This document shows positions 23,455-50,366 of a stretch of DNA of 54,061 nt, in pieces. Origin of the DNA: Prorocentrum cordatum (Eukaryota); assembly GCA_963575745.1 (NCBI GenBank), contig CAUYUJ010000268.1, positions 62,001-116,061 of the forward strand. Reading direction: 5' to 3'. A program made the position numbers and the translations under genes. How positions within the stretch are numbered: the stretch's first letter is position 1; each line of letters begins with the position of its first letter. The notes under the pieces were generated by a model. The model was not told where the DNA came from. It did no database searches and was given only the letters and a program-made list of their open reading frames with translations.

Positions 23455-23490
<36 letters not shown>

Positions 23491-23812: not shown

Positions 23813-23831
23813 TAAGGTTTAGGGTTTAGGG

Positions 23832-25196: not shown

Positions 25197-25217
25197 TATA
25201 GGGTTTAGGGTTTAGGG

Positions 25218-27364: not shown

Positions 27365-27421
<57 letters not shown>

Positions 27422-27557
27422 CCCGGCGCTTCCAGGCGCTCCCAAGCGCTCCCAAGCGCTCCCAGGCGCTCCCAGGCGCTCCCAAGCGCTCCCAGGCGCT
27501 CCCCGGCGCTCCCAAGCGTTCCCGAGCGCTCCCAGGCGCTCCCAAGCGCTTCCCGCA

Positions 27558-27602
<45 letters not shown>

Positions 27603-28654: not shown

Positions 28655-28921
28655 ACACACCGTATTAGCGTCTGCGGACCTCGCGGCGGTGTCAATTTGG
28701 GTGCGCTATCGCCGAGAGCGCTTCCGCGCGTGCCCGCTCGAAGATCGCGCCCCCTCCCGCACGGCGGCTGTCTCCCAGACGGCCCCGAAGCGCTCGTTGC
28801 GCGCCTTTCGCGCGTGCCTGGAGCGCTTGGGAGCGCTTGGGGGCGCCTGGGAGCGTGCCGGGAGCGCCTGCGAGCGCCTGGGAGCGTGCCAGGAGCGCTT
28901 GGGTGCGCCTGGGAGCGCTTG

Positions 28922-28954
<33 letters not shown>

Positions 28955-30400: not shown

Positions 30401-31097
30401 AGGGTTTAGGGTTTAGGGTTAGGGTTTAGGGTTTAGGTTTTAGGTTTTAGGGTTTGGGGTTTGGGGTTTGGGGTTTGGGGTTTTGGGTTTTGGGTTTTGG
30501 GTTTAGGGTTTAAGGTTTCGGGTTTAGGGTGTTGCCCGCCAAGCGGTGTGGGCGCGCGCACGCATCCCACCCCCACATCAAGATTGTTGGGGGTGGGATG
30601 CTGTGTGCGCGCTCGCGTTGCTTGTCCTCCCGCCCCAATCCACCCCGGCTATTCTCTTTTAGGGTTTAGGGGCACAGAGAGTTCTTCCCCCCAGCCCCCA
30701 CTCAAGGGGGTGTCGAACACCACGTCGTCTCACCTGAGAACGCGCAGGCGCTGTAACGCATTGGGAATGGGGAACCGCCTCCAGGTTTAGTTCGGCGCGT
30801 TGGGGAACGCCCGACCGGCGATCTCTTCCCGACTCTCCCGCAGGAGCGTGCTGCCGCGGTGGCCACCACGCGCAAGCGGTTTGCAGGCCAACGAGGTGTC
30901 GTACTTGTTGCCCAGGTTCCCTGGCAACGCCAGAAACCGCGCCTGCGCGCTCTTTTTCGATGCCCAGCGCGCTGGCGAGCGCTATGGCGATTGAAGTCAA
31001 ACATACGCAGATCCTCAATCTCAGAAAGCATCATGGTAGAGAACGACAAAGGGGACCCAGCCTACGAGGGTTTAGGTTAGGGTTCAGGGGTTTAGGG

Positions 31098-32603
31098 ACT
31101 AACAGCAAGGCCAGAATACCTACCTGCATAGGCACTCCACCCAGCGGTGGCTATCAATCACCCCCGATACTCCACCCCCACATACAGATTATCTCTCCTC
31201 TCGACGTTTATACCCTAGCGCGGGTCGGGCGGGCGGGACCCTAGCGGGCGGGTCGGGCGGGCGGGGCCTTAACGGGCGGGTCGGGTCGGGTCGGGCGGGC
31301 GGACCCTAACGGGCGGGCCGGGCCGGGTCGGGCGGACCCTAGCGGGCGGGTCGGGTCGGGCGGGCGGGACATTAAAGTATGGTGCGTGTGCACTGGACAC
31401 GCGTGAACCCTGACGGGCGGGTCGGGTCGGGTCGGGCGGGCGGGCCCGAACGGGCGAGTCGGGTCGGGTCGGGCGTGCCCTAACGGGCGGGTCGGGTCGG
31501 GCGGGCGGGGCGTGAAATTATGGCGCGTGTACACTTGACACGCGTGAACCGTAACAAGCGGGTCGGGTCGGGTCGGGCGCACTCGAGGGTTCGCCCTGAA
31601 CCCTAAGCCTCGGGCGGCTTATGCAACGCCTCTCGTGAAAGCTATGCCACATACATAGATTAACAGAGGCGAGTTCACAACATCTGGAAAACCGCAGCCT
31701 CCTAGCGTGGCTGTCGCATAACACCAGTGCTGAAAAACATTAAAATGCCAAAGAGTTGGCCATGTTAGGGGTTTAGGGTTTAGGGTTAAGGGTTTAGGTT
31801 TAGGGCCTGCATTGCCAAATGCTTCAAAATCGTACGCAGAGCCTCCAATCTCAGAAGCGATCATGGTGGGGCCACGACAAAGGGGAACAGCTCGGCCAGT
31901 TTAGGTTGAGGGTTTAGGGTTTTGGACTATCAGGGCCAAGGCTGCCTCTCCGAGGCGCTTAGTCAACTCACTGCGTGGCTGCGGCGGCTATCAATCCCCC
32001 CCGCATCTCCACCCCCACATAAAGATCATCTCTCCTCTCATGTTATACCCTAGCGGGCGGGTCGGGCGGGCGAGACCCTAACGGGCGGGTCGGGCGGGCG
32101 GGGCCCTAACGGGCGGGTCGGGTCGGGTCGGGCGGGCGGACCCTAACGGGCGGGTCGGGTCGGGTCGGGCGGACCCTAGCGGGCGGGTCGGGTCGGGCGG
32201 GCGGGACATTAAAGTATGGTGCGTGTGCACTTGACACGCGTGAACCTTGACGGGCGGGTCGGACCGGGTCGGGTGGGCGGACCCTAACGGGGGGGTCGGG
32301 TCGGGTCGGGCGGACCCTAACGGGCGGGTCGGGTCGGGCGGGCGCGACATTAAAGTATGGTGCGTATGCACTTGACACGCGTGAACCCTGACAAGCGGGT
32401 CGGTTCGGGTCGGGCGGACTCTAGGGTTCGCCCGACCTCAACGCGCTTTGCTATGCAACGCCTCTCGTATGCTATGCCAGCATAACATAGATTAGCACAA
32501 AGGCGAGTTCCACGACATCTGGATAACCGCAGCCTCTAGCGTGGCTGTCGCATAACACCAGTGCTGAAAAAAAACATTAAAATGTCCAAAGGAGTTGGCC
32601 ATG
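31098..32603 (+). mobile_element. Family I, two copies (31098-~31764, ~31926-32603) with (GGGTC/GGGC)n-CCCTAA repeats
   Basis: Shared interior repeats and a shared ~150-bp end ..cataacaccagtgctgaaaaacattaaaatg..gagttggccatg. The ccccacataaagatcatctctcctctc motif is shared with family C. Confidence 0.55.
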
Positions 32604-32651
32604 TTAGGGTTTGGGGTTTAGGGTTTAGGGTTTAGGGTTTAGGGTTTAGGG

Positions 32652-34155
32652 CCTGCATTAGAGAAAGCGCGCGCTGGCTGCGATCCCCCCCACATCAAGG
32701 TTGTTGGGGGGGATCGCTGCCCAGGCCGCGCGCGCCACGGTTAGTCGCACTCCCGCCCCAGACCACCCAGAGTGAAGCCTTTTAGGGTTTAGGGTTTCTC
32801 CCCCCAACCCCCCTATCCCGGGGGGCTGTCGAAGTGGTGCGCGCAGGCGATCGCCGACGCGGCCGTGGCACTGCGCATCCACTTGAGCATGCGCGCAGGG
32901 CGCGTGACGTAGGCGCGTCGGCTCGGCGCCTCGTCGAAGAGGCAGCCTTTGGCGATTTCGGCGTTGAGCTTCGCCGTTGGGCTGCCGCTGGCGCAGCATG
33001 TCCATGCGTTGCTGCATGTGCCTTCGGCACTGGGTTGCGACACTGGGCCGTGAATGTTGGGATGCGCGCGTGCGGCCGCGGCCGTAGCAATGCGCGCCGA
33101 TGCGAGCACGCGCGCAGGGTGCATGGCGCTGGCGCGTCAGGTCGCCTCGTCGATGAGGCAGCCGTTTGCACCTTCGGCGTGGAGCGTCGTCGGTGGGCTG
33201 CCGCTGGCGCAGCCTGTCCACAGGGGTCCGGCATCTGCTTTCGGCATTGGAAAGCAGCACTGCGAAGGCGCTGGCGCGGCAATCCCATGGTTCCCCGTGG
33301 GCCTGGAGCGAGTGGTTGCGCCGTCGGGCTCCTCGCTGACGGCGACGCGTACGGCAGTTACATTCGCCCGCGGCGTTGGGTTTCGATTTTTGGGTTCGCC
33401 CTCCCGCTGAAGCGATTGCAATCATCGACGCAGCCGCCTTCGGCGCGAGCTTCGGACGGCTGGAGGGGGAGCGCGAGGGGGTGGGTCTGGCACCCCCTCG
33501 CTGCGATGCGCGCGCATGGCTGCGGCAGCACCTCCATGGCAGAGCCCGTGGAATTCCTTGGGGGGGCCCTCTGGCAGCGCTGGGAGAGCGCCTGGAGCTT
33601 CCCCCTGGGGCCGCCTGGAACCGCCTGGGCACGCTTGGGAGCGCGCGGGAGCGCGCGGGAGCGCATGGGAGCGCCGCGTGGCGCCTTGGAGCGCTTGTGG
33701 GTGCTTAAGAGCGCGTGGGAATGCTTGCGCGCCTGGGAGCACCTGCGAGCGCCAGGGAGCGCTTAGGAGCGCTTCGGAGTCGTGGCAGCGCTGGGAACGC
33801 TGGGGAGCGCCTGCGAGCGCCTGGGAGCGCGCCAGGAGCGTGCCGGGAGCGCTTGGGAGCGCCTGCGAGCGCCGGGAGCGCTTGGGGGCGTGCCGGGAGC
33901 GCTTGGGAGCGCCTGGGAGCGCCTGGGAGCACGCGCCTGGGAACGCGCTTGGGGGCGTGCCGGGAGCGCCCAGGAGCGCTTGGGAGCAATTGGGAGCGCG
34001 TGGGAACGCCTGGAACCGTGCCGAGAGCGCCTGGGAGCGTGCCGGGAGCGCCTGAAGCGCTGTGGAGCGCTTGGGAGCGTGCCCGGAGCGCCTGGGAAAG
34101 CTTGGAAGCGCTTGGGAGCGCTTGGGAGCGCCTGGGAGCGCCTGGGAGCGCTTGG

Positions 34156-34187
<32 letters not shown>

Positions 34188-34564
34188 ACGCCTGGGAGCG
34201 CCTGGGAGCGTGCCGGGAGCGCTTGGAAAGTCCTTGGGAGCGCCTGGAGCGTTTGGAAGCGCTTGGAGCGCCGCATGCGGTAATTTCATAGGTTTGGAGC
34301 ACCCAGAGCGCACCGCATGCTGTATTTTCATAGGTTTGGAGCCCCAGGGGATGTAGCGACTCGCGGGGGACCCGCTTGCTAGGGCTGAGGGTTAGGGGTT
34401 CCTTTTCTTAGGAGAACACCACGGGGATGCACCGCGCGGCGTGCGAATTCCTCCTCGGCGGCTATCGCCGCTTCGTCGGTGCGGCGTACGCTGCATGGGC
34501 AGGCTCGCTGAGCGCTCGGCCAGACGCCACGGGCTACGGACGTTGCACCGCCCGCGGCTTGCAG
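32652..34564 (+). mobile_element. Family E non-autonomous element (1.9 kb), relative of the RepHel element
   Basis: The first ~900 bp align with 34607-~35430 and the last ~250 bp align with ~48230-48479. Interior is (GGGAGCGCCT)n. Flanked by TTTAGGG tracts. Confidence 0.85.
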
Positions 34565-35449
34565 TTTAGGGTTTAGGGTTTAGGGTTTAGGGTTTAGGGT
34601 TTAGGGCCTGCAGGGGCGCATGCGCGCGCTGGCTGCGACCCCCCCCCACATCAGGGTTGTTGGGGGGGATCGCTGTCCAAGCCGCGCGCGCTATGAACTT
34701 GCACTCCCGCCCCAGACCACCCACAGTAAAGCCCTTTGAGTTTAGGGTTTCTCCCCCCACCCCCCCCTATCACGGGGGGCTATCGAAGTGGCGCGCGCAG
34801 GCGATCGCCGACGCGGCCGTGGCATTGCGCATCCACGTGAGCACGCGCGCAGGGCTGCCCCTGGCGCAGCATGTCCGTGCGTTGCCGTTTTGCCTTCGGC
34901 ACTGGGTTGTGACACTGGGGTGCGAATGCTGGGAAGCGCGCGTGCTGTCGCGGCCGTGGCAATGCGCGCCCATGCGGGCACGCGCGCAGGGTGCATGGCG
35001 CTCGCGCGTCAGCTCGCCTCGTCGATGAGGCAGCCGTTTGCACCTTCGGCGTGGAGCGTCGCCGGTGGGCGGCCGCTGGCGCAGCATTTCCACAGGGGTC
35101 CGGCATTTGCCTTCGGCATTGGAAAGCAGCACTGCGAAGGCGCTGGCGTGACAATACAATGGGTTCCCCTGCGCCTCAAGCGAGTGGCTGCGCCGTCGGG
35201 CTCCTCGCTGACGGCGACGCGCACGGCAGTTGCATTCGCCCGCGGCTTTGGGTTTCGCCTTTGGGGTCGCCCCCGCTGAAGCGATTGCAATCATCGACGC
35301 AGACGCTGTCGACGCGAGATTCGGAAGGCGGGAGGAGGAGCGCGAGGGGGTGGGTGTGGCACCCTCTCGCTACGATGCGCGCGCATGGCTGCGGCAGCAC
35401 CTCCACGGCAGACCCCTTGAAATGCTTGGGGGGATTTCTGTGGAAGCCA

Positions 35450-38400
35450 GGGTCGGCCTCGCCCTTGCGCCCGCTGCGGCCGCGGCCCACGCCCGGCGCG
35501 GCGCCGGGCGGCCTCGGGGCGCTCTCTGCGGCCTCGGGGCGCTATCTCCGAGCTATCTTTGAAGGACGCCACAGACGGCGCCTTCGGTCTCGCCCTTGCG
35601 CCCGCTGCGGCCGCGGCCCGCGCCCGGCGTGGCGCCTGGCGCTCTCTGGGCGCTATCTCCGAGCTATCTTTGAAGGACGCCACAGACGGCGCCTTCGGCC
35701 TCGCCCCCGCGCCCGCTGCTGCCGCGGCCCACGCTCGGCGTGGCGCATGGCGCTCTATAGGCGCTATCTCCGAGCTATCTTTGAAGGACGCCACAGACGG
35801 CGCCTTCGGCCTCGCTCCCGCGCTCGCTGCGGCCGCGGCCCACGCCCGGCGTGGCGCCTGGCGCTCTCTGGGCGCTATCTCCGAGCTATCTTTGAAGGAC
35901 GCCACAGACGGCGCCTTCGGCCTCGCTCCCGCGCTCGCTGCGGCCGCGGCCCACGCCCGGCGTGGCGCCTGGCGCACTCTGGGCGCTATCTCCGAGCTAT
36001 CTTTGAAGGGCGCCACAGACGGCGCCTTCGGCCTCGCTCCCGCGCCCGCTGCGGCCGCGGCCCACGCCCGGCGTGGCGCCTGGCGCTCTCTGGGCGCTAT
36101 CTCCGAGCTATCTTTGAAGGACGCCACAGACGGCGCCTTCGGCCTCGCTCCCGCGCCCGCTGCGGCCGCGGCCCGCGCCTGGCGTGGCGCCTGGCGCACT
36201 CTGGGCGCTATCTCCGAGCTATCTTTGAAGGACGCCACAGACGGCGCCTTCGGCCTCGCTCCCGCGCCCGCTGCGGCCGCGGCCCACGCCTGGCGTGGCG
36301 CCTGGCGCACTCTGGGCACTATCTCCGAGCTATCTGTGAAGGACGCCACAGACGGCGCCTTCGGCCTCGCCCCCGCCTTTGCGCCCGCTGCGGCCGCGGC
36401 CCACGCCAGGCGTGCCTCGGGCGCTCGTGAGCGCTATCTCCGAGCTATCTTTGAAGGATGCCACAGTCGGCGCCTTCGCTGTAGCCTTTGCGCCCGCTGC
36501 GGCCGCCGCCCACGCCGGGCGTGCCTCGGGCGCTCGTGAGCGCTATCTCCGAGATATCTTTGAAGGACGCCACAGTCGGCGCCTTCGCTGTAGCCTTTTG
36601 CGCCCGCTGCGGCCGCAACCCGCGCCAGGCGTGCCGCGGGCGCCCGTGAGCGCTATCTCCGAGCTATCTTTGAAGGACGCCACAGTCGGCGCCTTCGCTG
36701 TAGCCTTTGCGCCCGCAGCGGCCGCCGCCCACGCCAGGCGTGCCGCGGGCGCTCGTCAGCGCTATCTCCGAGCTATCTTTGAAGGACGCCACAGTCGGCG
36801 CCTTCGCTGTAGCCTTTGCGCCCGCTTCGGCCGCCGCCCACGCCAGGCGTGCCTCGGGCGCTCGTGATCGCTATCTCCGAGCTATCTTTGAAGGACGCCA
36901 CAGTCGGCGCCTTCGCTGTAGCCTTTGCGCCCGCTGCGGCCGCAGCCCACGCCAGGCGTGCCTCGGGCGCTCGTGAGCGCTATCTCCGAGCTATCTTTGA
37001 AGGACGCCACAGTCGGCGCCTTCGCTGTAGCCTTTGCGCCCGCTGCGGCCGCGTCCCACGCCAGGCGTGCCTCGGGCGCTCGTGAGCGCTATCTCCGAGC
37101 TATCTTTGAAAGACGCCACAGTCGGCGCCTTCGGTGAAGCCTCTGCGCCCGCTGCGGCCGCCGCCCACGCCAGGCGTGCCTCGGGCGCTCGTGAGCGCTA
37201 TCTCCGAGCTATCATTGAAGGGCGCCACAGCTGGCGCCTTCGCTGTAGCCTTTGCGCCCGCTGCGGCCGCCGCCCACGCCAGGCGTGCCTCGGGCGCTCG
37301 TGAGCGCTATCTCCGAGCTATCTTTGAACGACGCCACAGCTGGCGCCTTCGCTGTAGATTTTGCAGCCGCTGCGGCCGCACCCCACGCCAGGCGTGCCTC
37401 GGGCGCTCGTGAGCGCTATCTCCGAGCTATCTTTGAAGGGCGCCACCGCCGGCGCCTTCGCTGTAGCCTTTGCGCCCGCTGCGGCCGCCGCCCACGCCAG
37501 GCGTGCCTCGGGCGCTCGTGAGCGCTATCTCCGAGCTATCTTTGAAGGACGCCACAGTCGGCGCCTTCGCTGTAGTTTTTGCGTTCGCTGCGGCCGCAAC
37601 CCCACGCCAGGCGTGCCTCGGGCGCTCCTGAGCGCTATCTCCGAGCTAATCTTGAAGGACGCCACAGTCGGCGCCTTCGCTGTAGCCTTTGCGCCCGCTG
37701 CGGCCGCCGCCCACGCCAGGCGTGCCTCGGGCGCTCGTGAGCGCTATCTCCGAGCTATCTTTGAAGGACGCCACAGTCGGCGCCTTCGCTGTAGCCTTTG
37801 CGCCCGCTGCGGCCGCCGCCCACGCCTGGCGTGCCTCGGGCGCTCGTGAGCGCTATCTCCGAGCTATCTTTGAAGGACGCCACAGTCGGCGCCTTCGCTG
37901 TAGCCTTTGCGCCCGCTGCGGCCGCCGCCCACGCCAGGCGTGCCGCGGGCGCTCGTGAGCGCTATCTCCGAGTTATCTTTGAAGGACGCCACAGTCGGCG
38001 CTTTCGCTGTAGCCTTTGCGGCCGCTGCGGCCGCTGCCCACGCCAGGCGTGCCTCGGGCGCTCGTGAGCGCTATCTCCGAGCTATCTTTGAAGGACGCCA
38101 CAGCCAGGCGTGCCTCGGGCGCTCGTGAGCGCTATGTCCGAGCTATCTTTGAAGGACGCCACAGTCGGCGCCTTCGCTGTAGCTTTTGCGCCCGCTGCGG
38201 CCGCCGCCCACGCCAGGCGTGCCTCGGGCGCTCGTCAGCGCTATCCCCGGGCTATCTTTGAAGGACGCCACCGTCGGCGCCTTCGCTGTAGCCTTTGCGC
38301 CCGCTGCGGCCGCCGCCCACGCCAGGCGTGCCTCGGGCGCTCGTGAGCGCTATCTCCGAGCTATCTTTGAAGGACGCCACAGTCGGCGCCTTCGCTGTAG

Positions 38401-41140
38401 CCTTTGCGCCCGCGGCGGCCGCCGCCCACGCCAGGCGTGCCTCGGGCGCTCGTGAGCGCCATCTCCGAGCTATCTTTGAAGGGCGCCACAGTCACGCCAC
38501 AGTCGGCGCCTTCGCTGTAGCCTTTGCGCCCGCTGCGGCCGCCGCCCACGCCAGGCGTGCCTCGGGCGCTCGTGAGCGCGATCTCCGAGCTATCTTGAAG
38601 GACGCCACAGTCGGACGCCTTCGCCTGTAGCCTTTGCAGCCCCATGCTGCGGCCGCACCCCGCCAGGCTTGCCCTGGGCGCTCGTGAGCGCAATCTCCGA
38701 GCTCTCTTTGAAGGACGCCACAGTCGGCGCCTTCGCTGTAGCCTTTGCGCCCGCTGCGGCCGCGGCCCACGCCAGGCGTGCTTCGGGCGCTGCTGAGCGC
38801 TATCTCCGAGCTATCTTTGAAGGACGCCACAGACGGCGCCTTCGCTGTAGCCTTTGCGCCCGCTGCGGCCGCCGCCCACGCCAGGCGCGCCTCAGGGCCC
38901 GCCGCAGTCGGCGCCTACGCTGTACTTTTGCGCCGCCCGGGCCCGCCGCCCACGGCCAGGCCGGCATCGGGCGCTTCGTGAGCGCAGGTGCTCGAAGCTA
39001 TCTTTTGAATGTCGCCACAGACGGCGCCTTCGCTGTAGCCTTTGCGCCCGCTGCGGCCCGCGGCCCACGCCAGGCGTGCCGCGGGCGCTCGTGAGCGCTA
39101 TCTCCGAGCTATCTTTGAAGGACGCCACAGTCGGCGCCTTCGCTGTAGCCTTTGCGGCCGCTTCGGCCGCCGCCCACGCCAGGCGTGCCTCGGGCGCTCG
39201 TGAGCGCTATCTCCGAGCTATCCTTGAAGGACGCCACAGTCGGCGCCTTCGCTGTAGCCTTTGCGGCCGCTGCGGCCGCCGCCCACGCCAGGCGTGCCTC
39301 GGGCGCTCGTGAGCGCTATCTCCGAGCTATCTTTGAAGGACGCCACAGTCGGCGCCTTCGCTGTAGCCTTTGCGCCCGCTGCGGCCGCGGCCCACGCCAG
39401 GCGTGCCTCGGGCGCTCGTGAGCGCTATCTCCGAGCTATCTTTGAAGGACGCCACCGTCGGCGCCTTCGCTGTAGCCTTTGCGCCCGCTGCGGCCGCGGC
39501 CCACGCCAGGCGTGCCTCGGGCGCTCGTGAGCGCTATCTCCGAGCTATCTTTGAAGGACGCCACAGTCGGCGCCTTCGCTGTAGCCTTTGCGCCCGCTGC
39601 GGCCGCCGCCCACGCCAGGCGTGCCTCGGGCGCTCGTGAGCGCTATCTCCGAGCTATCTTTGAAGGACGCCACAGTCGGCGTCTTCGCTGTAGCCTTTGC
39701 GCCCGCTGCGGCCGTCGCCCACGCCAGGCGAGCCTCGGGCGCTCGTGAGCGCTATCTCCGAGCTATCTTTGAAGGACGCCACGGTCGGCGCCTTCGCTGT
39801 AGCTTTTGCGCCCGCTGCGGCCGCCGCCCACGCCAGGCGTGCCTCGCGCGCTCGTCAGCGCTATCTCCGAGCTATCTTTGAAGGACGCCACAGTCGGCGC
39901 CTTCGCTGTAGCTTTTGCGCCCGCTGCGGCCGAGGCCCACGCCAGGCGTGCCTCGGGCGCTCGTGAGCGCTATTCTCCGAGCTATCTTTGAAGGACGCCA
40001 CAGTCGGCGCCTTCGCTGTAGCCTTTGCGCCCGCTGCGGCCGCCGCCCACGCCAGGCGTGCCTCGGGCGCTCGTGAGCGCTATCTCCGAGCTATCTTTGA
40101 AGGACGCCACAGTCGTCGCCTTCGCTGTAGCCTTTGCGGCCGCTGCGGCCGCGGCCCACGCCAGGCGTGCCTCGGGCGCTCGTGAGCGCTATCTCCGAGC
40201 TATCTTTGAAGGACGCCACAATCGGCACCTTCGCTGTAGCCTTTGCGCCCGCTGCGGCCGCCGCCCACGCCAGGCGTGCCTCGGGCGCTCCTGAGCGCTA
40301 TCTCCGAGCTATTTTTGAAGGACGCCACAGTCGGCGCCTTCGGTGTAGCCTTTGCGCGGGCTGCGGCCGCAAACCACGCCAGGCGTGCCTCGGGCGCTCC
40401 TCAAGCGCTATCTCCGAAACTATCTTTGAAAGGAAGCACAGTCGGCGCCTTCGCTTGTAGCCTTTGCGCCGCGCTGCGGCCGCCGCCCGACGCCAGGCCG
40501 TGGCCTCGGGCGCTCGTGAGCGCTATCTCCGAGCTATCTTGAAGGATCCATCATCGGCGCCTTCGCTGTAGCCTTTGCGCGCGCCACCGTCGGCGCTTCG
40601 CTGTAAGCCTTTGGCGGCCGCTGCGGCCGCCGCCCACGCCGGCGTGCCGGGGCGCTCGTGAGCGCTATCTCCGGCTATCTTTGAAGGACGCCACAGTCGG
40701 CCGCCTTCGGCTGTAAGCCTTTGCGGCGGCTGCGGCGCGCAACCCCGCCGGGCGTGCCTCGGGCGCTCGTGAGCGCTTATCTCCGAGCTAATCTTTGAAG
40801 GACCCACAGCGGCGCCCTTCGCTGTAGCCTTTGCGCCCCGCTGCGGCCGCGGCCCACGCCAGGCGTGCCTCGGGCGCTCGTGAGCGCTATCTCCGAGCTA
40901 TCTTTGAAGGACGCCACAGTCGGCGCCTTCGCTGTAGCCTTTGCGCCCGCCGCGGCCGCGGCCCACGCCAGGCGTGCCGCGGGCGCTCGTGAGCGCTATC
41001 TCCGAGCTATCTTTGAAGGACGCCACAGTCGGCGCCTTCGCTGTAGCCTTTGCGGCCGCTGCGGCCGCCGCCCACGCCAGGCTTGCCTCGGGCGCTCGTG
41101 GGCGCCATCTCCGAGTTATCTTTGAAGGGCGCCACAGTCG
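35450..41140. repeat. Tandem array: about 8 units of 111 bp, then about 43 units of 109 bp
   Basis: gctatctccgagctatctttgaaggacgccacag recurs with 111-bp period (35541-36318), then 109-bp period. Indel-rich patches at ~38570-39060 and ~40330-40850. Confidence 0.97.
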
Positions 41141-41695
41141 CCTGGGAAGCGCTTGGAAGCGCCAGGGAGCATCGGGGAGAGCGCCTGGGAGCGCACTCGG
41201 GAGAGGAGAGGCGACGCACGGGCAGTGTTGGAGAGTGTGTTCTATGGCATGACACGCGCACGTGTTCGCAGGTTGGAAGGGGGAGAGCGAGGGGGAGGGT
41301 CTGGCTCCCCCTCGCACACTGTTGAAATGAACATGCGTTGCCAGGGACGAGTTGCTCGCGCACAGGTCTAGGAAACATTTTCGAACACATCTTTCGCAGA
41401 GGACAGTAGAGACAGATGTCTTGGCGATGTGATGCAGTAGTCATTCGGAGCAGGGAGTCTTTCAAATGGATGGAGAGATGCATGGGCGGTGCAGTTCTCA
41501 ACGGCAGGGGTCGGGCATGCAGGGTTATCTCCGTTGTTCGAATGTCTGTGAGCGAATGCAGGAGAGCGCGGATGCAATTTGCGAGCTTTGGGTGCGAGAT
41601 GCATTGGCGATGCGTCCCAGCATGTCGCGGTGGAGGCATGTGGTGCCTTGGGATCTGCCTTTGCTCACCGCAACATCAGTCGCGATGTCGTTGGT

Positions 41696-41717
41696 TCCGT
41701 TGCCGCTTTGGCTCAAG
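41696..41717 (+). other. Relic dinoflagellate spliced-leader (DinoSL) sequence upstream of the RepHel start
   Basis: TCCGTTGCCGCTTTGGCTCAAG versus DinoSL DCCGTAGCCATTTTGGCTCAAG: 19/22, ungapped, 90 nt before ATG 41808. Confidence 0.75.
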
Positions 41718-41807
41718 CCTGATTTCGCCACCGCTTGGCACGCGCACCTGGCAGCCATCGTTGGCAGGCATCAGCCTCGCATCCACCTTCAGCGCACTCT
41801 CGCGGCG

Positions 41808-44800
41808 ATGGGCCCTCGGCGCTGCTCTGGCTTTGCGACCGACGACGGGATCGTCATCGAGTGCTGCTTCAATCCGTGGGAGAAGGGCAAGCGCGCGCAG
41901 GGAAAGTTCGAGGGGAAGTGTCAGTGGTGCTCTCCCATTCGCATGGCAACCATCTGCGCGACGCCGCAGCAGTCCAAGCTGACCGCGCACAGCCTCGCGA
42001 ACCTGCACAAGCTTGACATCGGCATCTACGACATGGCCGTGGAGCGGGTGAAGATGCACGAGAGGGGCGATGAGCTCATTGCCCGCGCTGTCGGCATAAT
42101 CTCGGAGCGCTCGCAGGTGGGCGTGCCGCCACCGCCGCCAATCGAATGTGACCAGGGCAACGTGGTCTCGCAGCCCGCCGACGAGGAGATTCCTGCTGCC
42201 ATGGAGCCCGACGAGGAAGCAGCCGCAGCAGGGCCAGCAGCGGCAGCGGAGCCGCCGCCAGTACCCGCGGAAGGCGAGGGCGCGGCCGCTGGGCGCAGAC
42301 GCCGGCGCCTCTGCGAGGGATACAGCCTGGCGCGCGCCATGGGCCGCAGGCTCAGAAGCAAGGAGGACGAGGGCGTCTGCTTGTTCTCCCGAGAGCATCC
42401 TGGACAGCGTGCTCGAGCGCCCGATGGGAAGTGCCTCTGGTGCACGCCTGCTCGCATGAAGGAGGCGGCAAGCAATCCCGCCAAGAAGAAGGAGGCCATG
42501 ACAGACCTGAAGAAGTTCGAAGCTCGTAACCCTGCGCTGAAGCAGAAGGCGCTGGGGCGGCTGCGCAGGCACCTCACCGCGCAGGAATATAAGGTCATCG
42601 TCACGCCGCACGACTGCTGCCGCGGCGCAGGGGATGCCATGTGCCCCTTCAGCACGACGAACCCAGGGCAGCCCGCGCGCGTGGTGAAGGCCGACAAGCA
42701 CTTGTGCAGCTGGTGCGATCCGCAGAGGCTCCGTGGCATGCAGACAGAGAAGCGCAGGGGCGTGCTGAAGCAGCTCGAGGCATTCCACGAGAAGGACGAA
42801 GCCGTATTTGCCAAGGCCGAGGCAATCCTGAAGGAAATCTTCGGGGACAACTACCTAGCGCAGATGAAGAAGAAGACTGTCCGGCAGAACCAGCAGGCGG
42901 CAAAAGCTCGAAGGCGCACTGGCAAGACGGACTGGCCGACGAAGCTGGCGAAGCGGCGGCTGGTGATGGAGAGCCCAACGGTCGACGAGGAAGCTCGCAA
43001 GAGGTTCCGCAAGCTGGCACTGGCGGATTTGAAGAAGGTCGAGAACTCGTTTTACAAGGACACAGCCGAGCGAAAGATGCGCGGTCGCGCCGACGAGGTT
43101 CCAAAGAGCAAGGACTTGGAGCCGCCGATTGGCGAAGCAGGCTTCAGTGATCTGTCGAAGGGGCTGAGGTCCTGGGCCGCCAAAGGCTCGTGGGGCATTT
43201 GCAAGGAGTGCCATGTCCTGCAGCCGCGGCCCATGCACGAGATCGATATGTTACTCGACGCCAGCGAGGAGATCTCGAAGAGCGCCTGCCGCCGCTGCAA
43301 CGCCTCTCGCGAGATGTACGTCCCGCTGCCTGATGACGTACCAGGGCCACTCCGCGGCCTGTCAGAGGAGATCGTCGAAGCCCTCCGGCCCATCGAGATC
43401 GACGTCGGCTCTGAGACGCGCTCCACCGACACGTTCGGCCGCCCGGACGGCTACCGCAAGAAGGTGAAGATGATCACGTTCTATTTCTCGAAGTGGCACG
43501 TCAAGGACAATATCAAGGAGCTGGATGATGACGCGCGGCGGACGGCGAAGAAGGCGCACAAGTACCTGCTGTCTTGCGAAGAGTCCTCGTACAAGCGGTT
43601 CCACGACATGCACGAGAAGTTCCTCCGCAAGCAGGGCGAGGACGCTACCGACAGGAAGCGCAAGCGCCCATATCATTTCCTGCAGGAGGTCGGGCTGGAG
43701 TGCGCTCTCTGGCCAAACCTGTACTGGTGCACCGAGATGACGGAGACGCACGAGCAGTGGTCCGACGCGAGGCGCGAGGAGAGGCGCGACGCCCAGGAGG
43801 CCAAGAAGAAGAAGGCAAAGTACGGCTACGACTCGGACGCCGAGGAGGACGAGGGCGGCGACGGCGGCGGCCAGCGCACCAGCGTCAAGCGGTCTTTCAT
43901 GACCAAGTGCCTCTCGCCGCTGCTTGGGTACGGATCCAACTTCGAGCTGCTCCAGTTCGTGTACGACCTGAACCTCTGGGCGACGCTCGGTGCGAAAAAG
44001 AACCTGGGGCTCGACAACGTGCCGATGCGGATGCTCATGAAGGGCCATACCTTCTCGCCGCTCTACTGGAAGGAGGTGCAAAATGCCCTTGTCGACCTCG
44101 TGCGCCAGGTGGGCTTCCCGAAGCTGTTCTTCACCATTGCGCCATGGGAGCCGTGCTTCAAGTGCCACGACTGGCTGCGCGATGAGATGGAGAAGACATT
44201 GCGGACCCGCATGTACCTCCCCGTGGGCGAAACGCTGCACATGTCGCACGTGCTCATGCAGATCGTCCGAGGCATGCTGGCGGGCAACAACTACCAGATG
44301 ATGGACCGCAGCAACCGCAGCTGGACACAGCACGTGTTCGCCGCGAAGGACGCCGACGGCAGACAGGTTCGCGTCCAGAGTTTCACGAGACTAGAGTTCC
44401 AGGACGGGAGCCGCAAGGAGGGCACGAAGCGCTACGACGGCTCTGGCCGGCCGCACCTGCACGTCCTCTTCTTCGCGGAAGACGACTCCATGGCGAACAT
44501 GGGATTGGAGCACCACCTCTTCGCGACCCAGCCCGATGGCTTCTCGGATGACCTGAAGGGTTACGTGGACGGATCCCAGTTCAACAAGCACGGCGATGCA
44601 GAGAGCAAGTGGCCGATATACCATGGGCCGTCGGGGGTGCACGGCGGCGATGGTGTCCTCCAGCTGAAGCACACCAGGGAGGACCACGACGCGGGCCTCC
44701 GAGCGTACTGCGCTGACGTAATGGACGGGCTCCCTTGCCATCAGGACTGGCAGACCAGCGACGGGGAGGCCATGCTCCTGCAATACGTTTCCAAGTATGT

Positions 44801-47144
44801 GGCGAAGTTCTCGGACAGCAGCTACGACGAGTGGATGAGCGACAGGGCCTCCGCGGACAGCGTGGCCAGGCGCGTCTGCTTCGAGTACCACCCCTACGAG
44901 CCAGAGATGATCCTGCAGCTGTGTGGAGCGCAATTCAGACAGTACGACATCTCTACTGTCAGCGGCGGCTTCCGCACCGTGACGGCGCCTTACTCGGGCA
45001 TGGCGGAGGTGCCCGAATGGGTCCAGAGGTATGCTGATTGCTCATGGCGCCACGAGGGCATGACGCTCTTGGATTGGCTTCGGAAGACTACCGACGACGG
45101 CGCCATCGCTGGGTGGCTGAAGCGCAAACACAAGCAGGAGCTGGTGCTGGCCCTGCACAGGCGGTACCGCGCGACCGTGCCCGACGGCGAGGAGCCCCAG
45201 GCGCTCGACGCTCACTGGCGCTTCCTGTGCGCTGAGTACAAAGGCATGGCCGATGCTGATGGCGGAGATGGCGGCAACAGCGACGAAGACTCCGACGCCG
45301 AAGACGTGGAGCAGCCGAAGACCTTCGAGGAGTTCCTAGCGAAGAAGCACAGAGACGAAAAGAGCGAGGGCGAGGACGACTTTCCTAATCTCAAGGAGTT
45401 CGCGCGAGCCTACCGCATGCAGGGCGAGAAGGTGGTCAGCGTCGACACGGTATACGAGCTCAACGACCGCTACTACGGCCAGTGGGCTGCAATGAACGTG
45501 CCGTTCCGATCGCTCGACGAGCTCGAGTTCGAGGATGTCAATCGCCTGGTTCCGCAGAAATACAAGTATCTCGCGGCGGCGCTGCGACTGTGCTCCGACC
45601 AGGGCCGCGTCGCTCAAGAGCACCATGACTTGTTCACCGATGACAGGCGGCTCATGGACTACATGAGCGCTTCAGCGAAGTCCAGCAAGTTCACCGAGGC
45701 TGTGCATCACATGATCGTGGGCCAGCGGAAGCTCATCAACATGTACCTGACGGGCATCATCGACAAGGCCGACGAGAAGGCCGCGGCCGACGCCGAGGCC
45801 GCGGTCATCGGCAGCCGCAGGCCAGCGCGCGGCGAGGGACAGGAGGATGTCGACTTCAACCCGAAGCAGCTGCAGCTGGAGGAGGCGATCAACGAGCGCG
45901 TGGACCGTGCCGCGCGAGCGGAGCTGTCGGGGGACTGGGAGGAGGCCGACAAGGCGCGCGAGGAAGCGCACAAGAAGAACACGCCAGTCATCTGCCTTGG
46001 GAAGCCTGGGACGGGGAAGACCACCGTGGTAAAGTCCTGCATTCGGCGCGCCCAGGAGCAAGGCGCGCGCGTGCTCTACGCCCTCCCGACGGCGCAGCTG
46101 TCCAGCCGCATGAAGCAAGCACTGCAAGGCCTGGAGGGCCTAACGATGGACACGTGCCACGCCGCATTCAAGCTGCACGATCCAATCACAGAGAGTCTTC
46201 ACAGGATGACGGACTTCGATTTGGTGGTGGTTGACGAGGTATCGCTGCTGAGTTGCGAAAGCTTCGAGCGCATCCTGAAGCTGTGGGGCGTCGCGGGGAA
46301 AGTTCCCGCGCTGGTCTTCCTCGGAGACAAGCACCAGCTCCCTGGGGTCGAGCCGACACGTCCGTGGGAGAGTGCCGCATGGAAGCAGCCGCGCTGCTTC
46401 CACGTGAAGCTCACCGAGACCTGGCGGTGCAAGGAGGAGCGCTTCCAGGAGATCCTGGACGAGCTTCGGACAGACAAGCCTTCGAAGGAGACGTTCCGCA
46501 AGATTGTGCGCGATCACAAGGCGTGGAAGAGCAGAGGCGATCCCACGCCCGCCGAAATGAAGAAGCTCTTCGAGAAGCACCCAGACACGCGGATCGTCAC
46601 CTGCACGCGCAGGGGCGCTGCGGCCGTGAACGAGGCTGCAGTCGCTGCGCTGTACGGCCGCAAGACCCCGCTGGCCACGCTGGACGGCGATGTGGAACTC
46701 AACCCCGAGAACTACCTGGATGGCAAGCTTCGCACTGACCGCCGTCTGGTTCCAAGCAAAGTGCCGATCTATAAGGGGATGAAGTTGTACCTGACGAAGA
46801 ACAAGAACAAGGAGGCTGACGAGGTCAACGGCATGCTTTGCGAGGTGGAGAACTACCACGCCGAGGAGGACATGCTGCGCGTGATGACGAAGACTGGCCA
46901 TCGTCTGGCCATCACTCGCTGGACCGATCGCGAGAAGGGCAACGCGGTCTACTTTCCAATCCGCCTCGGGTACGCCAGCACCATCGACAAAGTGCAAGGC
47001 GACGAGTTCCCCCACATCACTATATACCTGGACGGATGGCCTCGACCAGCAGCGGGGTATACAGCGCTCAGCCGTGTCGCGACGTCGGACGACTACCTGA
47101 TCGGCGGCTACGTGGAGCGCGACAACTTCATACCCGCGTTCTGA
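41808..47144 (+). CDS. RepHel transposase: Cys-rich N-terminal repeats, HUH Y2 endonuclease and PIF1-family SF1B helicase (about 1778 aa; ORF open from 41466)
   Basis: Rep motif 1 LFFTIAP (~44124-44144), motif 2 RLEFQ..GRPHLHVLFF (HLH 44454-44462), motif 3 YVSKYVAK (44784-). Helicase motifs GKPGTGKT (~45999), VVVDEVSLL, LGDKHQLPGV, LTETWR, FPIRLGYASTIDKVQG, YTALSRV. Intronless, no stops, strong GC3 bias. Confidence 0.93.
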   Translation: MGPRRCSGFATDDGIVIECCFNPWEKGKRAQGKFEGKCQWCSPIRMATICATPQQSKLTAHSLANLHKLDIGIYDMAVERVKMHERGDELIARAVGIISERSQVGVPPPPPIECDQGNVVSQPADEEIPAAMEPDEEAAAAGPAAAAEPPPVPAEGEGAAAGRRRRRLCEGYSLARAMGRRLRSKEDEGVCLFSREHPGQRARAPDGKCLWCTPARMKEAASNPAKKKEAMTDLKKFEARNPALKQKALGRLRRHLTAQEYKVIVTPHDCCRGAGDAMCPFSTTNPGQPARVVKADKHLCSWCDPQRLRGMQTEKRRGVLKQLEAFHEKDEAVFAKAEAILKEIFGDNYLAQMKKKTVRQNQQAAKARRRTGKTDWPTKLAKRRLVMESPTVDEEARKRFRKLALADLKKVENSFYKDTAERKMRGRADEVPKSKDLEPPIGEAGFSDLSKGLRSWAAKGSWGICKECHVLQPRPMHEIDMLLDASEEISKSACRRCNASREMYVPLPDDVPGPLRGLSEEIVEALRPIEIDVGSETRSTDTFGRPDGYRKKVKMITFYFSKWHVKDNIKELDDDARRTAKKAHKYLLSCEESSYKRFHDMHEKFLRKQGEDATDRKRKRPYHFLQEVGLECALWPNLYWCTEMTETHEQWSDARREERRDAQEAKKKKAKYGYDSDAEEDEGGDGGGQRTSVKRSFMTKCLSPLLGYGSNFELLQFVYDLNLWATLGAKKNLGLDNVPMRMLMKGHTFSPLYWKEVQNALVDLVRQVGFPKLFFTIAPWEPCFKCHDWLRDEMEKTLRTRMYLPVGETLHMSHVLMQIVRGMLAGNNYQMMDRSNRSWTQHVFAAKDADGRQVRVQSFTRLEFQDGSRKEGTKRYDGSGRPHLHVLFFAEDDSMANMGLEHHLFATQPDGFSDDLKGYVDGSQFNKHGDAESKWPIYHGPSGVHGGDGVLQLKHTREDHDAGLRAYCADVMDGLPCHQDWQTSDGEAMLLQYVSKYVAKFSDSSYDEWMSDRASADSVARRVCFEYHPYEPEMILQLCGAQFRQYDISTVSGGFRTVTAPYSGMAEVPEWVQRYADCSWRHEGMTLLDWLRKTTDDGAIAGWLKRKHKQELVLALHRRYRATVPDGEEPQALDAHWRFLCAEYKGMADADGGDGGNSDEDSDAEDVEQPKTFEEFLAKKHRDEKSEGEDDFPNLKEFARAYRMQGEKVVSVDTVYELNDRYYGQWAAMNVPFRSLDELEFEDVNRLVPQKYKYLAAALRLCSDQGRVAQEHHDLFTDDRRLMDYMSASAKSSKFTEAVHHMIVGQRKLINMYLTGIIDKADEKAAADAEAAVIGSRRPARGEGQEDVDFNPKQLQLEEAINERVDRAARAELSGDWEEADKAREEAHKKNTPVICLGKPGTGKTTVVKSCIRRAQEQGARVLYALPTAQLSSRMKQALQGLEGLTMDTCHAAFKLHDPITESLHRMTDFDLVVVDEVSLLSCESFERILKLWGVAGKVPALVFLGDKHQLPGVEPTRPWESAAWKQPRCFHVKLTETWRCKEERFQEILDELRTDKPSKETFRKIVRDHKAWKSRGDPTPAEMKKLFEKHPDTRIVTCTRRGAAAVNEAAVAALYGRKTPLATLDGDVELNPENYLDGKLRTDRRLVPSKVPIYKGMKLYLTKNKNKEADEVNGMLCEVENYHAEEDMLRVMTKTGHRLAITRWTDREKGNAVYFPIRLGYASTIDKVQGDEFPHITIYLDGWPRPAAGYTALSRVATSDDYLIGGYVERDNFIPAF

Positions 47145-47837
47145 GATTGCCTCCGGTGTCCGCGCGTTGGCTGGCGCGCGACCGCTCGCCTCTCGCAGTA
47201 CCACGCGGTGCGCCTGCCCCGCTGTCGCGTGCAAAGGCACGAACGTGCGCATTCCTGTTAGGAAAATGATGGTCTGTCAGTGCCACGTCGGGGAAGGGAA
47301 GGAAAGCAGAAGGAAGGGCATACGTAGAGATTGTCTGACGTTCTCGACACCCCTGGAGTTTCCAAACGGCGGGGAGGGGGAGCGCGAGGGGGCGGGTCTG
47401 GCGCCCCCTCGTACATGGCCACGGAAGGCGTCGTGTGATGCCCTTCGCGGCGGACTTCGCAGTGCGAAAGGCGCCGGGCGCGTGCCCCTCGCGCTCCCCC
47501 CCGTGAAACCCCGTGGGACTTAAAATACGAGCCCCTGGAACTCGCCGGGGCTTGCTCGACGAGGTCTTGGGCGAATCACTTGGGTCCGCGGAGCCGTTCG
47601 GCGCATCTGCGTCGCTTTTTTTTTTCGCGCCGCGGTTTCTGCTAGATGCACCAGCAGGGCACCGAAGCATAGCCGAAGAAGCCGCCGCAGGCATAACGTT
47701 CTGCATGGCACACCAAGAAGGCCCAGAGGCCGCCGTAGGCGTATTTCCACGTGCGTTACGCTCCCCAGCACAGCCAGAGAGGCCGCCGTAGGCGTGGTTT
47801 CACGTGTAAGGCAGTCCCCAGGGGATGAGACCGACAT

Positions 47838-48160
47838 GGAAGCGCTTGGGAGCGCCAGGGAGCACCGGGGAGCGCCTGGGAGCTTGCCGGGAGCGCTTGG
47901 GAGCGCCTGGGAGCGCCATGCGCCTGGGTGCATTGGGAGCGCTTGGGAACGTGCCGAAAGCGCTGGGAGGCATCTAGGCGCTCCTGGGAGCGCCTGGGAG
48001 CGCTTGGGAGCGCCTGGAACGTTTGGGAACGCTTGGGAGCGCCTGGGAGCGCCTGGGAACGTTGGAGAGCGCCTGGGAACGTTGGAGAGCGCCTGGGACC
48101 GCTTGGGAGCACCTGATAGCGCTTGGGAGCGCCTGGAAGCGCTTGGGAGCGCCTGGGACG
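47838..48160. repeat. (GGGAGCGCCT)n 10-bp minisatellite (also in families A, D, E, F, H)
   Basis: Directly visible. Other tracts at ~17830-18400, 23455-23805, 27366-27660, 28815-29160, 29925-30205, 33580-34270, 41140-41200. Confidence 0.93.
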
Positions 48161-48507
48161 TGCGCCAGCCGAAAGGACGCCGCATACTGTATTTTCATAT
48201 GTTTTGCGGCCCCACTGACGGCCGAAAGAGCGCCGCATGCCGTATTTTCATAGGTTTGGAGCCCCAGGGGATGTAGGCGCCCGCTGCGAACCCACTGGCT
48301 GGGTTTTGGGTTAAGGGTTTTATTCATCTCTCGGAGCACTCACAAGGCATCCCCGCGGGGGAGCGCATCCTCCTCAGCGCTACGCGCTTCGTCGGTGCGG
48401 CGTGCGCGCATGGGCGGACTCGCTGATCGCTCGGCCAGGCGCCACGGGCTTCTGACGATGCACCGCCCGTGGCTTGCAGTTTAGGGTTTAGGGTTTAGGG
48501 TTTAGGG

Positions 48508-49910
48508 CTTCTGCGCAGAACCATCCTATCCCCCCCTCCTCAGGAGGTAGGGGGGGATGGATGGATGCGTTCTGTCCCACCCCATCCACCCAGAGTCATT
48601 GCTTTTAGGGTTTAGGGATCTACCCCCCACGCTCCCCCCTATCAAGGGGGGAAGGAGTGCTGGCGTCAGCCTGAGTGAGTGATGTGCGTCCCAGAAACAC
48701 GCGTGAACCGTAACAAGCGGGTCGGGTCGGGTCGAGCGCACTCGAGGGTTCGCCCGACCTCAACGTGCTTTGCATAGGATTGTGGTGGTTTACGTAGCGG
48801 GACGTAAAGATCCCCATAGCAGGCTCGATCAAGGGGTGCGCCTGGGAGCACGCGTGATCAGTTTATGATATTTTTTGCATAGGATTGTTATGGTTTACAT
48901 AGCGGGACGTACAGATCCCCATAGCAGGCTCGATCCAGGGGCGCGCCTGGGAGCACGCATGATCAGTTTATACTATGTTTTGCATAGGATTGTGGAGGGG
49001 GCCGTGAAGATCCGCACAGCAGGCTCGATCCAGGGGCGCGCTTGGGAACACACATCAATGTATAGTACGTTTTGCGTAGGATTGTTTACATAGCGGGACG
49101 TAAAGATCACCATAGCAGGCTCGATCCAGGGGCGCGCCTGGGAGCACGCATGATCAGTTTATACTATGTTTTGCATAGGATTGTGGTGGTGGGCCGTGAA
49201 GATCAGCATAGCAGGCTCGATCCACGGGCGCGCCTGGGAACACGCGTGATCATTTTATATTATGTTTTGCATAGGATTGTGGAGGGGGCCGTGAAGAGCC
49301 GCATAACAGGCTCGATCCAGGGGCGCGCCTGGGAACACGCATGATCAGTTTATACTACGTTTAGCATAGGATTGTTTACATAGCGGGACGTAAAGATCAC
49401 CATAGCAGGCTCGATCTAGGGGCGCGCCCGGGAGCACGCGTGATCAGTTTATAATATGTTTTGCATAGGATTGTGGAGGGGGCCGTGAAGATCCGCATAG
49501 CAAGCTCGATCCAGGGGCGCGCCTGGGAACACGCATGGTGAGTTTACATTTTGTTTTGCATGGGATTGTGGAGGGGGCCGTGGAGATCCGCATAGCAGGC
49601 TCGATCCAGGGGCGCGCCTGGGAACACGCATGATCAGTTTATACTACGTTTAGCATAGGATTGTTTACATAGCGGGACGTAAAGATCACCATAGCAGGCT
49701 CGATCTAGGGGCGCGCCCGGGAGCACGCGTGATCAGTTTATAATATGTTTTGCATAGGATTGTGGAGGGGGCCGTGAAGATCCGCATAGCAAGCTCGATC
49801 CAGGGGCGCGCCTGGGAACACGCATGGTGAGTTTACATTTTGTTTTGCATGGGATTGTGGAGGGGGCCGTGGAGATCCGCATAGCAGGCTCGATCCAGGG
49901 GCGCGCCTGG
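48508..49910 (+). mobile_element. Module G: telomere-flanked start followed by a ~96-bp tandem repeat (about 12 units, 48770-49910)
   Basis: 5' hairpin and internal TTTTAGGGTTTAGGG (48603-48617). Unit gcataggattgt..catagcaggctcgatccaggggcgcgcctggg. A 289-bp three-unit block is duplicated (from 49342 and 49631). Confidence 0.6.
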
Positions 49911-50366
49911 GAAGAGCTCTGGGGGGGCTCTTGGGGGGAAGCTTATGGGGAGAAGCTCCGCGGGAGAAGCTGGGGGAGAGCTCTGGGGGAGAGCTCTGTG
50001 GAGAAGCTCTGGTGGAGAGCTCTTGGGGGAGAGCTCTGGGGGATCTCTGGGGGAGAGCTCTGGGGGAGAGCTTCTGGGGGGGGCTCTGGGGAGAGCTCTG
50101 TGGGAGAGCTCTGGGGGTAGCTCTGGGGGAGGCCTCTGGGTGGGGGGCTCTGGGAGATAGAGCTCTGGATGATCGCTTGGGGGGGGGGCCTCTGGAGGGG
50201 AGCTCCGGGGGAGAGCTCCAGGGGAGAGCTCCAGGAGAGAGCTCTGGTGGGGAGCTCTGGGGGGGGGCTCTGGGGGGGAGCTCTGCGGGAGAGCTCTGGG
50301 GGGGGCTCTGGGGGGAGCTCTGGGGGAGAGCTCTGGGGGAGAGCTCTGGGGGAGAGCTCTGGGGGA
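49911..50366. repeat. G-rich minisatellite (GAGAGCTCTGGGG)n
   Basis: Directly visible, 13-14 bp degenerate unit. Confidence 0.92.

Follow-up and report, generated by a model that had tools for sequence, protein, structure and literature searches.

Helitron-like elements arrayed within telomeric repeats in the dinoflagellate Prorocentrum cordatum

Layout of the array and phase of its telomere junctions

The window analysed here is a 54,061-nucleotide stretch of the Prorocentrum cordatum genome (GCA_963575745.1, contig CAUYUJ010000268.1, positions 62,001–116,061), numbered from its first base. It contains a head-to-tail array of Helitron-like elements spaced by telomeric TTTAGGG repeats, running from about 17369 to at least 48617 (about 31 kb) and holding at least 18 elements or fragments of seven or more families (Table 1): A and A2, B and two B-like copies, C1 to C4, X1, three or four D copies, F and an F-like fragment, G, E1, E2 and H. 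At least 5.4 kb free of telomere tracts follow the array, up to the window end, making it internal to the window. An initial annotation had singled out the pair E1 and E2 and set the limits of the feature at 32652–48507; the feature is real, but this range understates the architecture.

E2 is putatively autonomous, with an open reading frame (ORF) for a Rep–helicase fusion (RepHel) and a 109-bp satellite that occupies 5.6 kb. E1 is 89% identical to E2 over E1 positions 16–250 and 328–914, and 75% identical over 1253–1913. Since its ends match those of E2 while the satellite and the ORF are missing, we regard E1 as an ORF-less relative of E2, in line with the earlier description of a RepHel element beside a non-autonomous partner. 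A tblastn search of the window, array included, found no RepHel coding relative other than the E2 copy.

Telomeric sequence in the window is strictly polar. The doublet TTTAGGGTTTAGGG occurs 36 times on the plus strand and never on the minus strand (none expected, from 100 shuffles), and single units number 72 TTTAGGG against two CCCTAAA. Parsing exact and one-mismatch repeat units yielded 17 inter-element tracts, all on the same strand and uniformly short, at 1–7 units. An exact TTTAGGG stands directly before the next element in all 17, across eight different element starts; at the other side, the tract opens with an exact unit in 12 cases and with a one-mismatch unit in five. This phase is unchanged whether the last base of the preceding element is G, A or T. 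Excising an element in silico restores an unbroken TTTAGGG repeat, so no target-site duplication is present. E1 and E2 have identical junctions, AGGG/CCTGCA at one end and TTGCAG/TTTAGGG at the other, which bears out the initial annotation in its claim that both are precisely bounded by telomere repeats in one register.

Tract lengths differ between copies of a family, as do the neighbours. On one side, C copies adjoin three, two or two units, or else the tract of 132 bp, and D copies lie alongside three, one, zero or two units. Tracts are therefore not fixed termini of the elements. E1 is flanked by 5+2 and six units, E2 by six and four. A paralogous pair, in which two C copies are separated by two units at 21705 and by three units, X1 and two further units at 22977–23831, looks in its sequence like an empty and a filled site.

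Two sites depart from this pattern. Positions 30398–30529 hold the sole long tract of the array, a degenerate 132 bp with runs of the variant units TTTGGGG, TTTTGGG and TTTTAGG, which could be a remnant of genuine telomere of greater age. At 26488–26495 the end of a D copy meets a B-type start with no telomere unit between them, the sole such junction in the array.

Terminal modules and hairpins

Families A, C, E, H and X1 have an end module in common, located at the side of the left-hand tract. It begins with a spacer of 8–15 nt, continues through a long hairpin with a C-run/G-run core (hairpin 1), a C-rich stretch, an internal (TTTAGGG)2 and a second spacer of 13–15 nt, and finishes in a C6/G6 hairpin (hairpin 2) that family A lacks. 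Orientation is the same in all 11 modules of this hairpin type. Hairpin 1 folds better than shuffled sequence in five of five modules (z-scores of −3.1 to −6.4, with none or one of 200 shuffles as good), and its core is kept in all eight aligned modules, drawn from four families; hairpin 2 is conserved in six of these eight. The outer stems align poorly across families, so support for the hairpins is that of folds within each family. Among 30 pairs predicted by RNAalifold across the full alignment, nine have at least one double-sided change that keeps the pair; the C-run/G-run cores are invariant.

The internal telomere pair always has two units and co-occurs with the family body, by which we assign it to the element; it is decayed in A, X1 and E2. 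At the termini of 12 elements there are no terminal inverted repeats above shuffled sequence, the longest exact inverted match being 4–9 nt. The 9-nt match, in E2, is equalled in length by seven of 200 shuffles and is internal to both ends; for the other 11 elements, 47–200 of 200 shuffles do as well.

As a separate idea, we considered the minus strand of the internal pair, lying between helices, as a template like that of telomerase RNA. Beyond the motif itself this found no support: Rfam gave no match at gathering score over the window, and two matches in 32500–35000 are at chance level (E = 0.67 and 0.77).

A Helitron-type Rep and helicase in E2

As judged from its motifs and predicted fold, the E2 protein is a Helitron-type HUH/two-tyrosine Rep fused to a Pif1-type helicase. 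Its C-terminal 400 residues are a Pif1/RecD-type superfamily 1 helicase by sequence searches of Pfam and the Protein Data Bank (PDB). Across 21 aligned family members, no variation or almost none is seen at H997/H999 of the HUH motif, at Y1107/Y1111/K1114 or at the Walker A residues G1512..K1518, and the reported uninterrupted frame with all catalytic motifs is thus borne out. The Pfam family Helitron_like_N (PF14214) is matched at E ≤ 1 by 13 of the 21 members (best 2.9e-10), and a rolling-circle Rep family by five. No reverse transcriptase family is among the Pfam matches of the E2 protein.

An AlphaFold model of residues 690–1240 (mean predicted local distance difference test score 68, predicted template modelling score 0.58) retrieved Helraiser (7lcc_A) as the sole Foldseek match at E ≤ 0.001 (8.3e-5, probability 1.00). 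VIA-align superimposes the model on Helraiser over 326 residues with a Z-score of 11.5 and a root-mean-square deviation of 4.8 Å; the runners-up, which include HUH Reps of parvoviruses, geminiviruses and plasmids, score 4.5 or below. Sequence identity to Helraiser in the Rep domain is 13–14%. The N-terminal 611 residues contain three C-x17–21-C-x2-C repeats and one CxxC..CxxC motif, and for this region a language-model search pointed only tentatively to DUF6570, with a score of 0.86 that falls short of the guide value of 0.9.

Relatives outside the window

The closest proteins are four from P. cordatum, 92–96% identical over the matched part; other matches come from Symbiodinium, Durusdinium, Effrenium and Polarella. 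A word-index search returned 75 matches, the named ones all dinoflagellates except the last two. The family is very large: a profile of the Rep domain, searched exhaustively, recovered 2001 clusters at E ≤ 1e-3, 1386 at 1e-10 and 568 at 1e-30, and the best 150 matches are all close relatives (E ≤ 8.5e-77).

In a metagenome scan, the RepHel-like loci among the 80 kept are only L001–L006 and L009. No telomere pair, even with two mismatches allowed, occurs in L001–L005 or L009. L001–L005 are too short to show element flanks, leaving L006 as the one usable outside locus. The RepHel relative on this 17.5-kb contig, broken and 36% identical, is truncated inside the helicase and followed directly, at the contig end (13307–13429), by (TTTAGGG)12+, at least 17 units in all. 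The RepHel points towards this tract, whose addition starts one base into the unit, and the 8.3 kb upstream of the ORF contain no telomere tract. Sequence features of the locus resemble a chromosome end healed inside an element.

No relative is among the 42 pattern matches of a viral-contig scan. Part of 41200–48800 (a share of 0.46 or less) is found in 20 listed sequencing runs, no RNA run being among these.

A model for insertion into telomeric repeats

We propose that these are Helitrons that insert into telomeric repeats with strand and phase specificity, and that their ORF-less derivatives are mobilized in trans; we put the probability of this reading at roughly 70%. The HUH Rep would nick one strand of the telomeric repeat at a fixed phosphodiester, GGG^TTT on the G-rich strand or, equivalently, AAA^CCC on the C-rich strand. 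A single-stranded element would then be inserted at the nick, in one orientation only and with no target duplication. E2 would supply the RepHel transposase, and E1 and the short families, having kept the terminal signals, would be mobilized by it. Repeated insertion into the leftover tracts would build head-to-tail arrays with spacers of a few units. If the telomeric repeat both flanks the two Rep cleavage sites and serves as target, the single phase, the single orientation and the lack of duplication would all follow. We infer both the cutting by Rep and the movement of the elements in circular form.

Which strand is transposed is a closer question, and the geometry of the ends leans towards the C-rich strand (minus in the window), in which case the hairpin module would be a right terminal sequence present twice and the ORF would be antisense. 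On this strand the conserved hairpin lies 8–15 nt before the CCCTAAA tract, an arrangement typical of Helitron right termini and doubled here. The hairpin end is also kept between sub-variants (A versus A2, C1–3 versus C4) while the opposite end varies, and Helitrons are described as more variable at their left than at their right ends (Li et al. 2024, PMC11417382). A C-rich strand would further agree with the Helitrons of Paramecium, for which insertion into that strand has been proposed and in which clade B ORFs are antisense, towards the chromosome end (PMC13085455). Transposition of the G-rich strand, with the ORF sense and the nick at GGG^TTT, falls a little short of an even chance.

Several observations weigh against insertion into telomeric repeats. 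The case for transposition is drawn from sequence, and a constant phase would also be inherited if the elements spread by recombination within the flanking repeats. Junction copies are not independent, because all come from one 31-kb array with segmental duplicates (C1–C3 and C4/G are partly such duplicates). The internal (TTTAGGG)2 is uninterrupted in 12 of 12 cases despite offering the same nick site, and a simple rule by which any TTTAGGG/TTTAGGG is a target fails to explain this. The small hairpins 5–6 nt from the TTGCAG-type end (9-bp stems in E and C) are no better than shuffled sequence. E2 itself falls below the Pfam threshold for Helitron_like_N (E = 0.047). At the left edge of the array an F-like fragment adjoins unrelated DNA with no telomere tract, and no second telomere junction of H lies within the window. 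C4 and G are fragments of C bodies with slightly different cut points, followed by irregular telomere-like tracts, so truncation or healing also shaped the array. L006 is ambiguous and fits a subtelomeric position, not a clean insertion. The proposal of telomere-targeting insertion in the initial annotation thus stands in part: data from the window favour sequence-, phase- and orientation-specific insertion over tracts owned by the elements, and the sole outside locus gives an ambiguous result. Its further suggestion, that the elements may take part in building or maintaining chromosome ends, gains no support from the data here.

Alternatives to targeted insertion

Yeast Y′ arrays are made of helicase-encoding elements with short telomere tracts between them, and by analogy the array here could have a similar origin. 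A telomere-flanked ancestor would have spread by recombination, break-induced replication or integration of tract-carrying circles; tract and phase would travel with the element, no enzyme would target telomeres, and the helicase ORF would be a passenger or helper. Recombination within perfect 7-mers keeps phase automatically, the array has segmental duplicates and only short tracts, and the end modules seen in A, C, E, H and X1 have a common origin, so that their junction phase could have been inherited. Common descent accounts poorly for the same phase at unrelated starts, however (B, D and F versus the hairpin-module families), or for the junction of D with a B-like copy that has no telomere unit. 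Orientation is absolute, and the short families retain the terminal hairpin module, not just telomere repeats. The catalytic residues of Rep show next to no variation throughout a family of very large size, which argues that nuclease activity is selected. We consider a Y′-like history unlikely.

It is also improbable, in our estimation, that the elements were captured at chromosome ends, a Rep-linked strand being joined to the free 3′ OH of the G-rich overhang without a target nick. Telomerase would re-extend the new end, each element would mark a former chromosome terminus, and the transposed strand would have to be G-rich. The ORF is indeed sense on the G-rich strand, short tracts are expected if attachment takes place at short telomeres, and the truncated elements with irregular tracts (C4, G and L006) suggest that arrays were at times true healed ends. 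Template-aligned addition should shift the phase with the last base of the element, whereas the phase is the same after G, A or T (12 of 17 exact, five near-exact), and the healed end of L006 does shift. Telomerase addition after each element is disfavoured by these two facts and by the pair that resembles an empty and a filled site around X1. A C-rich transposed strand is instead favoured by hairpin geometry and by the hairpin end being the better conserved of the two, and for Paramecium the authors rejected telomerase addition on polarity grounds (PMC13085455). Chimeric joining of telomere-rich reads, or chance, can be all but dismissed: repeat-rich ends are hard to assemble, but 17 junctions agree in phase and strand where no match is expected by chance, and family-specific ends recur beside different neighbours.

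Comparison with known systems

Helitrons that insert into telomeric repeats have a precedent. Arnaiz et al. (preprint November 2025; BMC Biol April 2026; PMC13085455) report from Paramecium aurelia a third clade of Helitrons, 'HLE Paramecium' (HLE, Helitron-like element), whose members are inserted in telomeric repeats and cap germline chromosomes. The initial annotation took Helitrons normally to have only A/T or T/T targets and saw here the strongest candidate for a novel system in the window; that report overtakes the premise on targets, and the system is not novel in kind. Elements of the two hosts, both alveolates, have in common RepHel, telomeric flanks of one polarity on both sides, an orientation bias that is absolute, short telomere tracts inside the element close to its ends and, if the hairpin module is the right terminus, a terminal stem-loop, together with large satellites between ORF and terminus and abundant ORF-less derivatives sharing the termini (PMC13085455).

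The differences are equally specific. The repeat is TTTAGGG here and a mix of C4A2 and C3A3 in Paramecium, the host phyla differ, and the ORF is 5.7 kb against 9–10 kb (PMC13085455). Right ends in Paramecium finish in CCAA, a partial repeat, whereas ends here are specific to the family; two C-run/G-run hairpins around an internal telomere pair, at one end, are a feature of the elements here. Location at chromosome ends is established in Paramecium (PMC13085455), whereas the present array is internal to the window; L006 is terminal on its contig. New here are the host phylum and the repeat, junctions exact to the nucleotide and the double-hairpin module around an internal (TTTAGGG)2. Arnaiz et al. 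make no mention of dinoflagellates. Full-text literature searches returned nothing that links dinoflagellate telomeres to Helitrons or describes telomere-targeted Helitrons in dinoflagellates, and term searches within the HELIANO paper and within dinoflagellate papers, the latter silent on Helitrons altogether, found no telomere-targeted dinoflagellate Helitrons.

Among other Helitrons, a RepHel of Symbiodinium microadriaticum is placed basal to Helitron2 and Helentron, with no mention of telomeres (Heringer & Kuhn 2021, PMC8788227). Common ground between the elements here and the HLE2 group, this RepHel included, is a RepHel that lacks an AP (apurinic/apyrimidinic) endonuclease domain, hairpins close to the ends and occurrence in a dinoflagellate (PMC8788227). 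HLE2 (Helitron2/Helentron) is defined by terminal inverted repeats of 11–18 nt and a T^T target (PMC11417382); the 12 elements examined here have no such repeats above shuffles, and their target is a phase of a 7-nt repeat. Canonical HLE1 elements have 5′-TC and CTRR-3′ ends and an A^T target (PMC13085455, PMC11417382); these ends and this target are absent here, insertion being at GGG^TTT, or AAA^CCC as read on the C-rich strand. Retroelements, too, invade telomeric repeats (PMC10088271), and telomeres of Drosophila biarmipes are associated with Helitrons (PMC11934779, citing PMC6581046). Both resemble the present case in their head-to-tail, single-orientation arrays at telomeric repeats or chromosome ends. 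Telomere-specific non-long-terminal-repeat retrotransposons differ in their reverse transcriptase, which the elements here do not have, and D. biarmipes has no telomerase repeat to target. Helraiser (HLE1, PDB 7lcc) shares the Rep fold, the HUH motif and two tyrosines, the fused Pif1-like helicase and the lack of target duplication.

IS200/IS605 elements use a single-strand HUH nuclease with subterminal hairpins and insert beside a short specific sequence that is also the cleavage site of one end, with strict orientation and no duplication; they are prokaryotic, and their enzyme has a single tyrosine and no helicase. The working principle proposed here may be likened to theirs. We know of no homology between the two beyond the HUH fold.

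If targeted insertion is confirmed, the array would represent a second case of telomere-targeting rolling-circle transposons, this time from another alveolate phylum and with another repeat, and telomere targeting could be a general niche and not a ciliate oddity. The junction, resolved to a single phosphodiester in a perfect 7-nt repeat, offers a testable substrate for a eukaryotic HUH enzyme specific for a long sequence, which could matter for integrating single-strand DNA at chosen sites. The array is also relevant to the make-up of dinoflagellate chromosome ends, which are poorly understood.

A wider reading, speculative and in our view doubtful as a whole, would take telomere-colonizing Helitrons as an old, alveolate-wide lineage and, in dinoflagellates, as a sizeable share of the chromosome ends that is regularly renewed. 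Within it, Rep would use the telomeric repeat as its nick site; the hairpin–(TTTAGGG)2–hairpin module would reproduce this site within the element and serve as either a doubled terminator or a target mimic to guide the enzyme; and arrays would seed the re-capping of eroded or broken ends. Were this true, the elements would be a DNA-transposon counterpart of the Drosophila telomere retrotransposons, acting alongside telomerase, and could contribute to the very long terminal restriction fragments of dinoflagellates (25–80 kb, cited in PMC11453091).

Other features of the array and its flanks

Table 1. Elements, tracts and motifs of the array, in window coordinates
Feature	Position	Strand	Remarks
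F-like fragment, leftmost array piece	17369–17595		10-bp and 52-bp repeats and F-type end; blastn against left flank
Upstream part of array	17596–32602	+	spacers (TTTAGGG)1–4 or variant tract
Element A	17617–18465	+	
Element B	18487–20345	+	
Element C1	20367–21704	+	
Element C2	21719–22976	+	
Element X1	22998–23817	+	
Element C3	23832–25196	+	
Element D, first copy	25218–25879	+	
Element D, second copy	25887–26491	+	
B-like element	26492–27134	+	fused to D, zero spacer
Element A2	27163–27917	+	
Element D2	27939–28637	+	
Element F	28652–30397	+	
Degenerate telomere tract	30398–30529	+	
Element C4	30530–31070	+	
B-like element	31098–31763	+	
Element G	31806–32602	+	
Telomere tract left of E1	32603–32651	+	two variant units, then (TTTAGGG)5; exact units at 32617–32651
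E1, ORF-less relative of E2	32652–34564	+	1913 bp
E1 hairpin 1	32667–32734		C7/G7 core, 15 nt from element end; −36.2 kcal/mol, z −4.79, 0/200 shuffles
E1 internal (TTTAGGG)2	32781–32794	+	part of element
E1 hairpin 2 (C6/G6)	32808–32825		13 nt from internal pair; energy not above shuffles
E1 small hairpin	34526–34558		9-bp stem, one mismatch, 6 nt from TTGCAG end; not significant
(TTTAGGG)6, E1/E2 spacer	34565–34606	+	repeat count
E2, putatively autonomous	34607–48479	+	13873 bp
E2 hairpin 1	34613–34713		−37.3 kcal/mol, z −3.79, 0/200 shuffles
E2 internal telomere pair	34734–34747	+	first unit degenerate
109-bp satellite of E2	35539–41140		about 51 copies, between end module and ORF
RepHel ORF of E2	41466–47144	+	1892 amino acids, uninterrupted
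HUH motif	44448–44474	+	within RepHel ORF
Two-tyrosine motif	44784–44810	+	within RepHel ORF
Walker A	45999–46022	+	within RepHel ORF
Walker B	46224–46244	+	within RepHel ORF
10-bp satellite of E2	47837–48158		common to most other array elements, either orientation
E2 small hairpin	48441–48473		9-bp perfect stem, 15-nt loop, 6 nt from end; z −0.55
(TTTAGGG)4, E2/H spacer	48480–48507	+	repeat count
H end module	48508–48680	+	hairpin 1, internal (TTTAGGG)2 at 48604–48617, hairpin 2

Satellites recur through the array. A 10-bp repeat (GCGCTCCCAG or its complement) lies inside most families, in either orientation (17831–18406, 23454–23805, 27366–27635, 28816–29161, 29927–30213, 33604–34272 and 47837–48158), and may be a module common to the elements or swapped among them. 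In H, at 48788–50367, about 1.1 kb of a 95/289-bp tandem repeat precede a 13-bp repeat (about 35 copies), paralleling the satellites within E2 and those reported for Paramecium Helitrons. In the B-like element and G, repeats of 28–33 bp and 141 bp (31221–31617 and 32047–32417) contain a C-rich, telomere-like ACCCTAA embedded in G-rich units (CGGGTCGGG...), of polarity opposite to all real tracts. Within the second D copy, 123 bp (26149–26271) are an inverted duplicate of the D start (96.7%), an internal foldback and not a reversed insertion.

No Pfam match was obtained for the 12 tested ORFs that flank the array in the window; three long open frames on the minus strand to its left (820, 325 and 474 amino acids, at 6137–10923) have none and could be a gene or another mobile element. 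Further left, positions 1780–2750 are a microsatellite of about 325 AGT units (74% matches).

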